64,000 nucleotides of DNA from an uncultured Alphaproteobacteria bacterium (GCA_947627155.1 CANQUX010000005.1:13513-77512), one strand, 5' to 3'; counted from the first letter of the stretch, positions 46,759 through 50,669 are shown. The notes: a model not told the origin generated them from the letters alone. Program-made: numbers and translations.

Positions 46759-48306
46759 TTACCAACAGAGGGCATGGTGCTGTTTGCCACTACTGCCATG
46801 ATAATTACCGCGATTCTGACCACCCACACTACCGTAAACCTCATTAAAGATAATTTTTACAACATATGCACCGCAGGAATTTCTTCCTTTATTTGCTTCT
46901 GTATATGGATCTTCCAGCCAATAGTAGTTATTTCCTTGTTCTTCACTTCCGGTCTCCGCTCTGCTCAATGCTTTAATAACATGACTAAACCCGTTTGCAT
47001 TAGAGCATCTGTCTCCTTTAGCAGAACAACGACCTTGTGTTATTCCCCCTAAACTATCATTGCAACACTCTAAATCAGAAATTTTCAGCATGTGCTTACT
47101 TCCCGACAATGCCTGACAAAACCGCTCGGCACTCCACCAATTCATACCATGATTTGACATGATATACGGACTATCGTTGGAGTCGAGATTAGGTGCCGTA
47201 TATTCAGAGACTTTAACGCATTTGTGTGGTTTATCAGTACAACAATCCTGCTCTGTTGTTGTTCCCGAACGATAAGCATCAGGATCATCTCCGCATATAC
47301 AATAACAGTCGCTTGTCAGACAGAATTCGTCTGATTCGCAATCATTGTTGCTTAAACATCCGCAAAATTCGCCGTTCCACGGCTGATCTTCGGGACAAGC
47401 TTCGCATGTGTTTGTATCTGAATTGCAAATCGGCTTATCTGTTCCTTTCTCTAAACAATCTTCATTTACCGTACATTCCACGCATGTATTGTTATACCAT
47501 ATAGGTTTTTCCGGCGGACACGATTCGCAATCACCCAAATCAATATTGCATACCGGTTTGTTAGTTGGACAATCTGCATTTTCTATACATTCCACACACT
47601 CATGATTTGCCACATCACAAAATCTTGGAGCACTGCAATCACCTTCTTTTACACACTCCACACATGTATTGCTCTCTTTATCGCAAACAGGGGTTGATAA
47701 TCCTTCACAATCGTCATCATCACCACACCAACCTTCGGGACGATTCGAATCGTAATTACCGTTCACTTCTTCCGCATCAAACTGAATGTAAAATTCATTG
47801 GCTTCATCACTCGTGCATAAATCATATTTTTCATAAACTTCTTTGTTAATTTCCATATACATTAAACCGTCCATGGCATTAACAAGTGTTGTGAGCGGTT
47901 TGCAAACCCCTTTTGCAACATTCCCGACTTTAATATAATAAGCATCTGTTTCGCGGCAGTTATAAAATTCTGCTTTGTCTTTGCGAATGCAATCATAATC
48001 AACGGGATAGCGATCATATTGTGTTGATAAATGCCCGCTGTAATTTTCATCATCAGGCGTTTCATCATAAGGATCCCCCAATAACAATTCTTCATTTCCC
48101 AAAGCGTATTTTACCTTTAAATCGTTACGCATTAAGTTAATTTCGTTGGCTATTTGGTCGGCCTGATAATAATTCATGGCTAATTTATAACCGACAATCC
48201 CACCGATTGATAAAATAGCAATAATCGCCAATACGCCGAGCATTTCAATCATGCTGCGGCCTTGTTGCGCTTGATTTTGAATTTGTTTTTTGAGTTGCTT
48301 TGTCAT
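46759..48306 (-). CDS. Modular type IV pilin-like protein, paralog C (515 aa). Domains in order: prepilin N-terminus, about seven Cys-rich repeats, C-terminal C-type-lectin-like domain
   Basis: MTKQLKKQIQNQAQQG|RSMIEMLGVLAIIAILS; repeats of C.EC...DC....P.C; C-terminus GMNWWSAERFCQALSG...HALCW. Confidence 0.8.
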   Translation of the reverse strand: MTKQLKKQIQNQAQQGRSMIEMLGVLAIIAILSIGGIVGYKLAMNYYQADQIANEINLMRNDLKVKYALGNEELLLGDPYDETPDDENYSGHLSTQYDRYPVDYDCIRKDKAEFYNCRETDAYYIKVGNVAKGVCKPLTTLVNAMDGLMYMEINKEVYEKYDLCTSDEANEFYIQFDAEEVNGNYDSNRPEGWCGDDDDCEGLSTPVCDKESNTCVECVKEGDCSAPRFCDVANHECVECIENADCPTNKPVCNIDLGDCESCPPEKPIWYNNTCVECTVNEDCLEKGTDKPICNSDTNTCEACPEDQPWNGEFCGCLSNNDCESDEFCLTSDCYCICGDDPDAYRSGTTTEQDCCTDKPHKCVKVSEYTAPNLDSNDSPYIMSNHGMNWWSAERFCQALSGSKHMLKISDLECCNDSLGGITQGRCSAKGDRCSNANGFSHVIKALSRAETGSEEQGNNYYWLEDPYTEANKGRNSCGAYVVKIIFNEVYGSVGGQNRGNYHGSSGKQHHALCW

Positions 48307-48342
48307 TTTTGACTCCCTTTCACTATACGAATAGCATAAATT

Positions 48343-48497
48343 AAACGTACCTTTAATGCAACGCGGATTCCGGGGCAAAATTACCTTTAAAAAGCAAAAA
48401 ATCACCCTTAAAAAACAATCGAAAAATCAATGAATTCCGGCCAAAATAAATTTTTTTTGAAAAAATCAAAAAAAAGTGTTGCAAAAATCGTACGTTT
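48343..48497 (-). promoter_or_regulatory. Conserved IR-flanked leader segment of paralog C
   Basis: Arms at 48343-48362 and 48478-48497. Confidence 0.5.
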
Positions 48498-48562
48498 AAT
48501 TGAGGAAAGAGAAGCAGGGAAAATATGTTTGTTTTATTTGGTATTCGTTGGGCTACTCTCTG

Positions 48563-48902
48563 TTATTTTCGGCGGGAAGTGCTGTCCCGTGAAACGTGGG
48601 ACAGCGCGGTGTGCCGAAAATAAGAAACGGAAAGCGGCAATATTGATATTTTCTCTGATTCTCGACACATAGCAGGACGTCACTTTTCACGACGTCCCAC
48701 ACCCGCCGAGAATCAGAGAAAGGAAGCAAGGCCAACAGATAACTTTTCTCTTTCATGGTTGAAAATTGTGTTGTTAACGAACTTCCCCCTTTTGTCGGTG
48801 GGTGGAAAGTAATGAAACACTTCCTCTTTTCCTCTATCGGCGGATGTGATGCGCTGCTGAAAGGAGCGCATCGCTATGGGCCGATAGGGGGAAAGTGAGC
48901 GG
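48563..48902. repeat. GC-rich structured repeat element R, copy 2; lies between the divergent leaders of paralogs C and D
   Basis: About 93% identical to 1334..1672, with a compensatory change in the TCTCTGATT(C/T)TCG(A/G) stem. Confidence 0.6.
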
Positions 48903-48929
48903 TTTATTTTGGGAAGCGTTGCACAAATT

Positions 48930-49085
48930 AAACGTACGATTTTTGCAACACTTTTTTTTGATTTTTTCAAAAAAAATTTATTTTGGACGGAATTCATTGA
49001 TTTTTCGAGTGTTTTTTAAGGGTGAATTTTGGCAGTTTGAAGGCAAATTTTGCCCCCGAAACTGCGTTGCATTAAAGGTACGTTT
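48930..49085 (+). promoter_or_regulatory. Conserved IR-flanked leader segment of paralog D
   Basis: Arms AAACGTACGATTTTTGCAAC (48930-48949) and GTTGCATTAAAGGTACGTTT (49066-49085). Confidence 0.5.
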
Positions 49086-49121
49086 ATTTTATGCTATTCG
49101 CAGAGTGAAAGGGAGTCAAAA

Positions 49122-50669
49122 ATGACAAGACAATTCAAAAAAAATCAATTAAAACAATTTCAAAATCAAGCGCAACAAGGCCGGTCAATGGTTGAAATGC
49201 TCGGCGTACTGGCTATTATTGCTATTTTGTCAATCGGCGGGATTGTCGGCTATAAATTAGCCATGAATTATTATCAGGCCGATCAGATTGCGAATGAAAT
49301 TAACTTAATGCGTAACGATTTAAAGGTTAAATACGCTTTGGGAAATGAAGAATTGTTGCTCGGGGATCCTTATGATGATACACCAGAAAATGAACATTAC
49401 CGCGGGCATTTATCAACACAATATGATCGTTATCCCGTTGATTATGATTGCATCATCAGAGGTAATAAAGAGAGTAAAAATGAGCTTTATAATTGCCGCG
49501 AAGCAGATGCTTATTATATTGCCGTGGGGAACATTTCAAAGGGTGTTTGTAAACCGCTTACAACGCTTGTTGCCGCCATGGACGGCCGTTTGGAAATGGA
49601 TATCAATGGTTTGTCCTACACAGGAGGTGATTCATGTACCAGTGATGAAAATAATGAAATTTATGTTGAATTCGATGCGGCGGATGTAAACGGCAATTAC
49701 GATTCGGGGCGCCCAAAAGGCTGGTGTGCCAAAGATGACGATTGCGAAGGATTATCAACCCCTGTTTGCGATAAGGAAAACAATACGTGTGTGGAATGTA
49801 CGGAAAATACGCATTGCGCCTCAAATATATGTCGGAAAGATCACACTTGCGGTGAATGCACAAAAGATTCGGATTGTGTCAATCCGCGCCCGATATGCGA
49901 TACGGAATCGGCAACATGTATGAGATGTGCTGTTGACGATGAATGTCAAAGAGCCAACGTGAATAAACCTGTTTGCGACATGGGTACCGGCGCTTGTTGC
50001 GATGATCCGCTCATGACATGGAATGGCAGCGAATGCGTTTGCCCCGAAGATTATGCCAAATCGGAAACCAGTTCCGGTCAAGCTATTTGTTTACCTTATT
50101 GCGAGGAAAATAATATCGGTATTATTTTAATGACGGATACTTCCGGCTCAATGACTCTGCAAATGTTTGAAAATGCCAACAAAGCCAAAGAGGCGCTTCA
50201 TATTCCGGAAGATATTCCGTCAGCCGTTTATTGGTGTGCTGCTTGTTATGATGCACATTGTTTGAAAAACACGCCATCCGGTCCGGTAAATGAACATCTT
50301 TCTTACGGAAAACATTCTGTCAGTGAAATTCGCGCTGCTCTTCAAACAAATGTATCGGACAGGCTCAAAGTAACCGGTGATTTTGGTGGCAGTATTTATA
50401 AAATTATGGATTATTGCTCAACCATTAAAGAAAAACTCATTATTATTGTTTGGTGGGATAATCAAAAACCGGCCGATACCGGTAATGATATACCTGCATT
50501 TTCAAAATTGAAAGAAAAATGCCCCGAAACGGTTATTTATAATGTATCACCGAATGCCAAATCATTTGCAAGCGCTGATAAATCTTTTGATTTAAATGAC
50601 ATTACAACGGAATATACGGAAGTTTTAAATCAATTCATTCAAAAAGAAGGTTGTGTTGAGCGAGAATAA
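49122..50669 (+). CDS. Modular type IV pilin-like protein, paralog D (515 aa). Domains in order: prepilin N-terminus, Cys-rich repeats, C-terminal vWA-like domain
   Basis: MTRQFKKNQLKQFQNQAQQG|RSMVEMLG...; vWA MIDAS-like motif IILMTDTSGSMT. Confidence 0.8.
   Translation: MTRQFKKNQLKQFQNQAQQGRSMVEMLGVLAIIAILSIGGIVGYKLAMNYYQADQIANEINLMRNDLKVKYALGNEELLLGDPYDDTPENEHYRGHLSTQYDRYPVDYDCIIRGNKESKNELYNCREADAYYIAVGNISKGVCKPLTTLVAAMDGRLEMDINGLSYTGGDSCTSDENNEIYVEFDAADVNGNYDSGRPKGWCAKDDDCEGLSTPVCDKENNTCVECTENTHCASNICRKDHTCGECTKDSDCVNPRPICDTESATCMRCAVDDECQRANVNKPVCDMGTGACCDDPLMTWNGSECVCPEDYAKSETSSGQAICLPYCEENNIGIILMTDTSGSMTLQMFENANKAKEALHIPEDIPSAVYWCAACYDAHCLKNTPSGPVNEHLSYGKHSVSEIRAALQTNVSDRLKVTGDFGGSIYKIMDYCSTIKEKLIIIVWWDNQKPADTGNDIPAFSKLKEKCPETVIYNVSPNAKSFASADKSFDLNDITTEYTEVLNQFIQKEGCVERE

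Follow-up and report, generated by a model that had tools for sequence, protein, structure and literature searches.

The 64,000-nucleotide (nt) stretch analysed here, from an uncultured Alphaproteobacteria bacterium (GCA_947627155.1 CANQUX010000005.1:13513-77512; hereafter the window), contains between positions 46,759 and 50,669 two divergent genes, C and D, which are members of a large, fast-diversifying modular family of type-IV-pilin-like surface proteins in gut Alphaproteobacteria. We propose, with a probability of about one half, that each of these genes has its own invertible promoter and that the modular pilin adhesins they encode are switched independently by an Mpi-family DNA invertase. 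The proposal builds on features observed directly: protein architecture and folds, repeat anatomy, the specificity and fixed geometry of a leader motif, and the presence of the invertase. Coordinates are collected in Table 1; L and P numbers denote fetched loci and database proteins.

Each gene is preceded by a leader with paired inverted sites. The proximal block, on the gene side, reads GCG-TTGCAT-TAAAGGTACGTTTAATT-TATGCT and is followed by a short untranslated region with the ribosome-binding site GGGAG, while the distal block, GTG-TTGCAA-AAATCGTACGTTTA, repeats it in inverted form, lacks a -10 on the outer side, and is preceded on its inner side by a conserved A/T-tract palindrome. Both blocks are common to the four paralogs of the window (A to D) and about 25 genes in relatives. 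The inverted repeat itself is 20-31 bp long and centred on GTAC, with a nearly palindromic core, TAAA(C/G)GTACGTTTA. The 20 nt motif TTGCAWWAANNGTACGTTTA has eight matches in the 64 kb, against 0 expected; each paralog accounts for two of them, one proximal and the other distal and inverted, and the rest of the window has none. Spacing between paired sites is 117-120 bp from start to start in 25/25 pairs, equal to 143-145 bp between GTAC centres, and remains fixed even where the leader interiors diverge. Inside the leader of C, a GC hairpin adjoins the proximal site and an A/T-tract palindrome (AAATTTTTTTTGAAAAAATCAAAAAAAAGTG) adjoins the distal site. The half-promoter formed by the A-tract, GTG and TTGCAA is among the best-kept parts of the leader despite facing no -10 hexamer, and at some loci (L008, L009, L011, L023) the paired arms vary together.

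The leaders of C and D had been described from an initial inspection as essentially identical and flanked by inverted repeats, and this holds: they form an inverted repeat of 130 nt at 92% identity (48372-48501 / 48926-49055), or 190 nt at 75%, which extends, at 91%, across the initial 300 nt of the coding regions. Each gene has a complete module of distal site, interior of about 118 bp, proximal site, -10 and ribosome-binding site. The leaders do look like control elements. Over their full length the two proteins are 51% identical. A promoter scan also called a reverse promoter (TTGACT, 17 nt, TAGCAT) at 48309-48337 (+) and 49119-49091 (-), overlapping the forward TATGCT of each gene; this is a possible bidirectional promoter, whose reverse -35 is not conserved in relatives.

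The candidate recombinase is a serine invertase encoded in the window. It matches the Pfam Resolvase domain (E 3.9e-30) and the NCBIfam profile NF009949, 'master DNA invertase Mpi family' (E 3.3e-79, profile positions 1-198/203), the next best family reaching E 6e-7. A 57%-identical relative from an Alphaproteobacteria metagenome-assembled genome (MAG) bears the same Mpi name at NCBI, and two other MAGs of gut Alphaproteobacteria encode 51%-identical homologues some 0.4-0.5 kb before a small pilin gene. In two ruminant-gut Alphaproteobacteria MAGs (L075 7551-9024; L059 54-1253) a gene for a 198 aa Mpi-like invertase stands about 0.4-0.5 kb upstream of a 131 aa pilin gene that is bracketed by short inverted repeats (TACTGACAAAATGG / CCATTTTGTGAATA), an arrangement that may constitute a gene-inversion switch.

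From this anatomy we infer both that inversion occurs and which orientation would be ON. The leader interior would supply, at one of its ends, a UP-like A/T-tract followed by TTGCAA, and the exterior on the gene side would contribute the -10 (TATGCT) together with the ribosome-binding site. In the orientation that was assembled, the A-tract half-promoter points away from the gene, which would give low or no expression; inversion would join it to the -10, raising transcription, and the resulting junction would read AAAAAGTGTTGCAAAAATCGTACGTTTA(A/T)TTTATGCT. The invertase would act on all family members genome-wide, and C and D would switch independently and stochastically, with the repeat array between them (R2) not being the switch. 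One locus of another genome, L037, has exactly the configuration predicted as the product of inversion with crossover at GTAC (sites at 10826/10944): the half made of A-tract, GTG and TTGCAAAAATCG is joined to a -10, TATACT, before a Pmp-repeat adhesin gene, and the TTGCATTAAAGG half from the hairpin side (of the CATTAAAGG type) occupies the distal position, where it lacks a -10. Since this element (L037 10797-11047) precedes a Chlamydia-Pmp-repeat (autotransporter-type) adhesin gene, which starts at 11045, the leader element is not limited to pilin-like genes.

A known counterpart of this arrangement is found in Bacteroides fragilis, where capsular polysaccharide loci have Mpi-controlled invertible promoters that share the same inverted repeat and are served by a remote invertase (Coyne et al. 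2003, as cited in PMC4747536 and PMC10403206). Both systems belong to gut organisms and have a small Mpi-family serine invertase encoded away from its presumed targets, which are many dispersed surface-structure genes, each with a short segment in front that has one and the same inverted repeat at both its ends. They differ in that the organism here is an alphaproteobacterium, the presumed targets are pilin-like and Pmp-type adhesin genes instead of polysaccharide operons, and the repeat includes a -35-like hexamer with the -10 outside, so that inversion would swap an upstream A-tract and not take away a whole promoter. Site-specific recombination that varies pilus adhesin specificity, as we propose, is also known from the R64 shufflon with PilV and from Moraxella Piv inversion, which act on C-terminal coding segments of one gene, whereas here complete genes have their own promoters. 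We rejected a shufflon for the present locus, as the repeats lie in leaders and not in coding sequence.

The preliminary description had called the encoded proteins pilin-like, and all four members in the window indeed have the same layout with a prepilin-type N-terminus. Their hydrophilic leader peptide has Gly as its last residue and is followed by R-S-M-(I/V)-E with some 20 hydrophobic residues; a conserved head (about 180 residues) comes next, then a stalk of variable length with Cys-rich repeats of CxxC type, and finally a variable C-terminal domain. The N-terminus of C reads QQG/RSMIEMLGVLAIIAILSIGGIVGY (the slash preceding residue +1), and the leader peptides of both C and D end in NQAQQG/RSM. 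Among 24 aligned members the Gly is invariant, as are the G-R-S-M-x-E motif with its hydrophobic tract and the Glu at +5 (E25), which stands before that tract in G/R-S-M-(I/V)-E-MLGVLAIIAILSIGGIVGY. The GRSMVEML motif recurs in plain pilin-sized proteins of 131-170 aa in related genomes, and judging by sequence it looks like this lineage's own version of the prepilin signal. A profile search against PDB sequences gave no pilin match. The part before the Gly ranges from about 15 to about 180 residues (L001 9400-9950; P0001, P0041, P0079, P0090), a variation due to tandemly duplicated units; as each unit has a ribosome-binding site and ATG, several in-frame starts are possible.

A protein search with D returned 492 relatives, all of them unnamed and nearly all devoid of Pfam domains. 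More than one may occur on a single contig, where several were met, and the full-length P0001-P0005 are 60-80% identical to D. Species-representative genomes yielded 565 confirmed family stretches, nearly all in uncultured gut Alphaproteobacteria MAGs from rabbit, ruminants, and humans. Two rabbit MAGs give seven fetched loci each, and hence at least 8-12 family members per genome.

Pfam and NCBIfam gave no lectin or vWA match in C or D at E<=1, and the structures of the C-termini were therefore predicted from family alignments. The vWA-like domain attributed to D in the preliminary description is borne out by the predicted structure, with 84 Foldseek matches in PDB at E<=1e-3. The AlphaFold model of this tip (pLDDT, the predicted local distance difference test, 77.6) has alternating strands and helices, and all 50 of the matches listed are vWA/I-domain or vWA-fold proteins, Ku included; among them are I-domains, vWF A1/A3, ANTXR2, TRAP, and related proteins, at template-modelling (TM) scores of 0.45-0.52. 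Eight homologues all have the DxSxS motif and an Asp past strand beta-4 (D37, S39, S41, D144) without exception. This later Asp follows the strand LIIIVWWD, and the Thr of the metal-ion-dependent adhesion site (MIDAS) has no assigned position. A profile search of PDB sequences with the D tip matched TRAP and integrin I-domains alone, at E 0.4-1.1.

For C, which had been said to end in a C-type-lectin-like module, the fold is supported, and the term lectin is too strong. Structure prediction supports a C-type-lectin-like domain (CTLD) fold, and the tip has the CTLD W..A..FC helix motif, a WIGL-like Trp, and paired Cys; in 30 sequences C35, C65, W101, and C152 are invariant and W28, W29, A31, F34, C52, and C116 nearly so. 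In CLEC10A and its relatives, the part to which the profile aligns is beta-1/alpha-1. Pfam Lectin_C gave no match in C, and in the translation of its last 153 residues the EPN/QPD and WND motifs are absent, for which reason sugar binding by C should not be assumed. The C-terminus of paralog B is also C-type-lectin-like. A third tip type (...FGPYEHSY..WGHGT.DD...WLILKEE), with no Pfam match, occurs in P0011, the database protein that corresponds to gene A over the part present in the window, and is common to P0017, P0058, P0061, and P0067. A diversity-generating retroelement acting on the lectin-fold ends was considered and rejected: the 3' ends of B and C have no matching repeat (seed 12 / length 30), and no reverse transcriptase domain was found among 54 open reading frames (ORFs) of the window scanned with Pfam.

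The most likely function of C and D is that of alternative adhesins, displayed along a type IV filament or at its tip; we assign this role by analogy with PilB and PilC of Streptococcus sanguinis, the nearest design described so far. In that species modular type IV pilins have a vWA module (PilB) or a lectin module (PilC), and the class is reported to be widespread (PMC8179133, PMC9934059). Both systems combine a prepilin-type N-terminus with a grafted C-terminal binding module, have vWA-tipped (MIDAS or MIDAS-like) and lectin-type-tipped members in one genome, and presumably present adhesion on a type IV filament. Where S. sanguinis has two single-copy minor pilins in a pil operon, however, the present proteins form a multigene family (at least 8-12 members per genome and at least three tip types), in which each gene stands alone with its own elaborate leader; a long Cys-rich stalk separates head from tip, the lectin-type tip is C-type-lectin-like instead of concanavalin-A-like in fold, residue +1 is Arg, and curated pilin hidden Markov models stay below threshold. 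A further known system for comparison is the mosaic fibre tip domains of Bdellovibrio bacteriovorus (Bd2740 C-terminal domain, PDB 8oks), which differ in being carried by a trimeric fibre with a peptidase S74 domain instead of a pilin, at 13% sequence identity.

Several results weigh against our proposal or limit it. The paralog leaders are all in one orientation, about 25 as read from DNA and 11 further ones as read from over-called N-terminal protein extensions, and no locus was met in both orientations. L037, being another gene in another genome, could be a fixed arrangement. The assembled state may not be OFF, because the -35-like TTGCAT and the -10 remain at 17 nt from each other, and a promoter scan leaves this leader promoter uncalled because TTGCAT matches at 3/6 positions. 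The invertase scores 265.3 bits with NF009949, under the equivalog cut-off of 272. The likeness of the GTAC core (AAACGTACG) to the repeat of the Bacteroides enzyme depends on the Mpi consensus being ARACGTWCGT, in which case AAACGTACGA and AAACGTACCT would each match it at 9/10 positions. As regards the pilin character, PF07963 is sub-threshold for C and D (14.5-15.4 bits, cut-off 21.2), TIGR02532 gives 13.6 bits for C (cut-off 16.3) and no match for D, and the +1 residue is Arg instead of the canonical Phe or Met; beyond the gene for one T2SSE-family ATPase (17320-18621), the window revealed neither a prepilin peptidase nor an operon for pilus assembly.

Metagenome scans returned 0 matches for a junction-specific pattern, and since an orientation-neutral control pattern also gave 0 they are uninformative about inversion; when the small ORFs that each orientation should create were looked up as exact sequences, those of both were missing. 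Gene C was also assembled independently, and this assembly (L082, ENA ERZ27249386, a 45 kb contig) stops 159 nt upstream of the gene's start, inside the leader A-tract, a break that could reflect repeat collapse or mixed orientations. Given the single orientation, the plausible promoter in the assembled state, and the uninformative direct tests, switching is something that we infer.

The same near-perfect palindrome, lying exactly between -35 and -10, could instead be an operator. A dimeric repressor would bind the 14 bp TAAA(C/G)GTACGTTTA there and at the copy about 144 bp upstream, and the loop so formed would silence each paralog; the fixed spacing of 143-145 bp suits looping as well as synapsis, and the uniform orientation of all the paralog leaders, whether read from DNA or from protein, agrees with it. 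The looping regulator could be a small RHH_4 protein, as L004, L006 (with two copies), and L007 have genes for such proteins in the corresponding intergenic DNA, but the C/D and A/B regions of the window have no RHH gene. The repeat also extends beyond the palindrome into TTGCA and, distally, the UP-like A-tract, which an operator would not need, and inversion, unlike looping, predicts both the L037 configuration and the way in which each type of half-site stays linked to one particular end of the interior. An Mpi-family invertase is present as well. We regard looping repression as rather unlikely.

Still less probable, in our estimate, is that what we call the distal block is an inverted promoter copy in decay, carried along as the gene family expanded and kept alike by gene conversion among paralogs, with a leader that has no regulatory role and with C and D as constitutive or conventionally regulated genes that arose by an inverted duplication. 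Concerted evolution of the 5' ends is indeed strong, as the shared stretches of A, C, and D indicate: between C and D about 500 bp, from the leader into the 5' coding part, form a single long inverted repeat at about 91%, and between A and D 588 nt are alike at 91%. Degeneracy is also seen at the position of the distal -10 (GAGGAA, TGTGCA, GATGCA). Decay should nonetheless have reached the rest of the block, yet the A-tract and -35 are intact in 25/25 copies, the half-promoter and spacing are kept where interiors and coding sequence have diverged strongly (L009, L011), and the element also stands at a non-pilin adhesin gene (L037). Both the operator and the duplication relic are thus disfavoured by the preservation of the distal half-promoter beyond the palindrome and by the opposite configuration in L037.

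The preliminary description had placed coordinated or mutually exclusive control of C and D in a shared region of about 700 bp; this is not supported, since each gene has a complete module of its own and R2 is not a common switch but a general companion of the family, the same hairpin units occurring upstream of single genes and past paralog stop codons. That R2 and the intergenic DNA act as one bidirectional or flip-flop element, through inversion of the 48362-49066 block or a structured R2 RNA, is very improbable: the two proximal sites are inverted about 700 bp apart, R2 is strongly structured, and L004, L006, and L024 also have divergent gene pairs separated by hairpin arrays, but whole-block inversion would exchange equivalent leaders without change, the same leader and hairpin units serve single or tandem genes (A, B, L010, L018, L023), and R2 has no evident promoter or terminator and no Rfam match. 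If the leaders are invertible switches as we propose, C and D would be turned on and off independently and stochastically, with no obligatory either/or.

R2 is a family-specific array of structured hairpin units, not a switch. It lies between the two leaders, as first described, 60 nt from the distal site of C and 35 nt from that of D, and its predicted folding is much stronger than that of shuffled controls (z = -8 and -10.7). With nhmmer we found 75 units of about 70 nt in the window and 13 related loci. They fall into three divergent subtypes with a common outer stem and a conserved internal loop (GG(G/A)..GTG / CGC..TG.), and in the inner stem the sequence varies while pairing is kept: 93.4% of cells are paired, compared with 72% in shuffles and 40-52% when partner columns are slid, and 13/20 pairs have changes on both sides. 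G-U-type cells outnumber C-A-type cells by 68 to 32 in the pair table, a weak hint of one functional strand. Arrays have a period of about 105-120 bp and up to seven units in a row, in either orientation, and are positioned upstream of leaders, between divergent pairs (the C/D layout of divergent pair and hairpin array is repeated in L004, L006, and L024), and directly past paralog stop codons. All six units of the window lie beside paralogs, and those in other fetched loci, as read from their coordinates, lie beside family genes or in adjoining non-coding DNA.

As imperfect palindromes of about 70 nt in intergenic arrays of either orientation, the units resemble repetitive extragenic palindromic (REP) sequences and bacterial interspersed mosaic elements (BIME), from which they differ in occurring only beside family genes (in the 64 kb window and fetched loci), in the conserved internal loop, and in the two-tier stem. 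Rfam reported two tRNAs alone at gathering scores over the whole window, and permissive scans of 48300-49130 and 3250-3700 gave chance-level matches alone. A promoter scan of R2 showed no evident promoter. Other identities were rejected: intrinsic terminators (no U-tract on either strand, and an empty terminator scan of R2), integron attC (no GTTRRRY/RYYYAAC core), a CRISPR array (three divergent unit subtypes, with spacers that are themselves repeated), and parS (motif absent or in one subtype only). The hairpin-rich intergenic DNA of relatives contains RHH_4 genes (Pfam E 1.1e-19), absent from the window, whose products are possible local regulators.

Another structured element, about 290 nt long, is conserved directly upstream of the leader in paralog B and eight relatives. 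It consists of a strong promoter (TTGACA, 17 nt, TATTCT) and then about 190 nt of structured RNA with a long-range closing helix, ending in an intrinsic terminator (UCGCCU...AGGCGA followed by U8). Compensatory changes occur in 17/65 predicted pairs, from nine sequences only. The element has no Rfam family match and could be a new riboswitch-like leader or small RNA.

The head-to-head arrangement first reported for C and D is confirmed (C on the minus and D on the plus strand), and A and B are in tandem. ORFs as listed for C and D begin upstream of the likely ATGs. The 815 bp between the two genes are symmetric, with a leader of about 200 nt per gene and R2 in the middle. Alignment showed that P0019 is identical to gene C and that P0011 is identical to paralog A across the 282 aa present in the window. 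The neighbours reported at the outset are also in place: a VirD4-type coupling protein (43142-45325) is encoded downstream of C on the same strand, and tRNA-Ser (50696-50783) begins 27 nt past the D stop. No other type IV secretion gene lies beside VirD4, whose neighbours (41860-46525) are a SUKH-type (SMI1_KNR4) protein and two proteins, of 398 aa and 277 aa, that match no family; the order of these genes after gene C recurs in another assembly (L082). Directly past tRNA-Ser is a MazE/MazF-type toxin-antitoxin pair (50832-51340), and elsewhere (24270-25487) the window encodes a 405 aa protein with a Gln/Pro-rich 9 nt periodic repeat (24655-24744) and no family match. With dnaA, parB, NusA, IF-2, ATP synthase, and NrdD present, the window is chromosomal and from an anaerobe; an origin of the control region from a mobile element, plasmid, or phage was rejected on this ground and for want of a blastn match in plasmid or phage collections.

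Table 1 Features of the window and of related loci (positions without a locus number refer to the window)
Feature	Position	Strand	Description	Basis
Gene C	46759..48306	-	515 aa from likeliest ATG at 48306	ORF
C tip	46762..47220	-	C-terminal 153 aa; predicted C-type-lectin-like fold, without EPN/QPD/WND
C -10-like TATGCT	48338-48333	-	17 nt spacer from -35-like hexamer
C proximal site TTGCATTAAAGGTACGTTTA	48342..48361	-	includes -35-like TTGCAT 48361-48356	motif search
C leader interior	48362..48478	-	putative invertible segment	alignment, site table across loci
C distal site TTGCAAAAATCGTACGTTTA	48479..48498	+	inverted relative to proximal; outer side without -10
R2	48558..48894	.	337 nt, three hairpin units in + - + order	nhmmer, alignment
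R2 unit H1	48558-48627	+
R2 unit H2	48652-48721	-
R2 unit H3	48825-48894	+
D distal site TTGCAAAAATCGTACGTTTA	48929..48948	-		motif search
D leader interior	48949..49066	+	putative invertible segment	alignment, site table
D proximal site TTGCATTAAAGGTACGTTTA	49067..49086	+	-35-like 49067-49072
D -10-like TATGCT	49090-49095	+	ribosome-binding site GGGAG before ATG at 49122
Gene D	49122..50669	+	515 aa from likeliest ATG at 49122	ORF
D tip	50031..50666	+	C-terminal 212 aa; predicted vWA (Rossmann-like) fold, MIDAS-like D-T-S-G-S
Mpi-family serine DNA invertase	28151..28858	+	Resolvase domain and helix-turn-helix; 20 kb from C/D
Paralog A	1..846	-	cut by window start; sites 882-901, 1020-1039
R1	1328..1664	.	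copy of R2 (93% identical at 1328-1671); between B stop codon and A leader
Paralog B	1686..3098	-	470 aa; sites 3132-3151, 3271-3290
Structured element, about 290 nt	3287-3575	-
Structured element	L010 844-1135
Structured element	L018 446-724
Structured element	L008 9507-9791
Structured element	L001 8919-9199
Structured element	L024 3457-3733	-
Structured element	L005 9505-9791
Structured element	L023 215-489
Structured element	L017 199-481
RHH_4 gene	L004 638-904
RHH_4 gene	L006 3972-4238
RHH_4 gene	L006 5014-4769
RHH_4 gene	L007 710-991
RHH_4 gene	L044 19722-19991

Modular pilins and Mpi-type invertible promoters are both known already, but separately and in other phyla. The family described here offers a natural collection of diverse tip domains, all mounted on one scaffold, the region has two structured nucleic-acid elements without an Rfam match, and the bacteria that carry the family are widespread in rabbit, ruminant, and human gut metagenomes. 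As a broader picture, which we offer tentatively and hold to be possible rather than probable, one Mpi-family enzyme would flip cassettes before a dozen or more modular pilin and other adhesin genes, with the hairpin arrays and the structured RNA of about 200 nt as further layers; were this true, those layers might provide, for example, insulation, cassette exchange, or riboswitch-like control, and each cell would show a different tip. If the switch is real, these uncultured gut Alphaproteobacteria would choose among many pilus-tip adhesins by means of a master invertase, which would represent convergent use or transfer of a Bacteroides strategy of surface variation and would give a testable handle on how these bacteria attach in the gut and evade.

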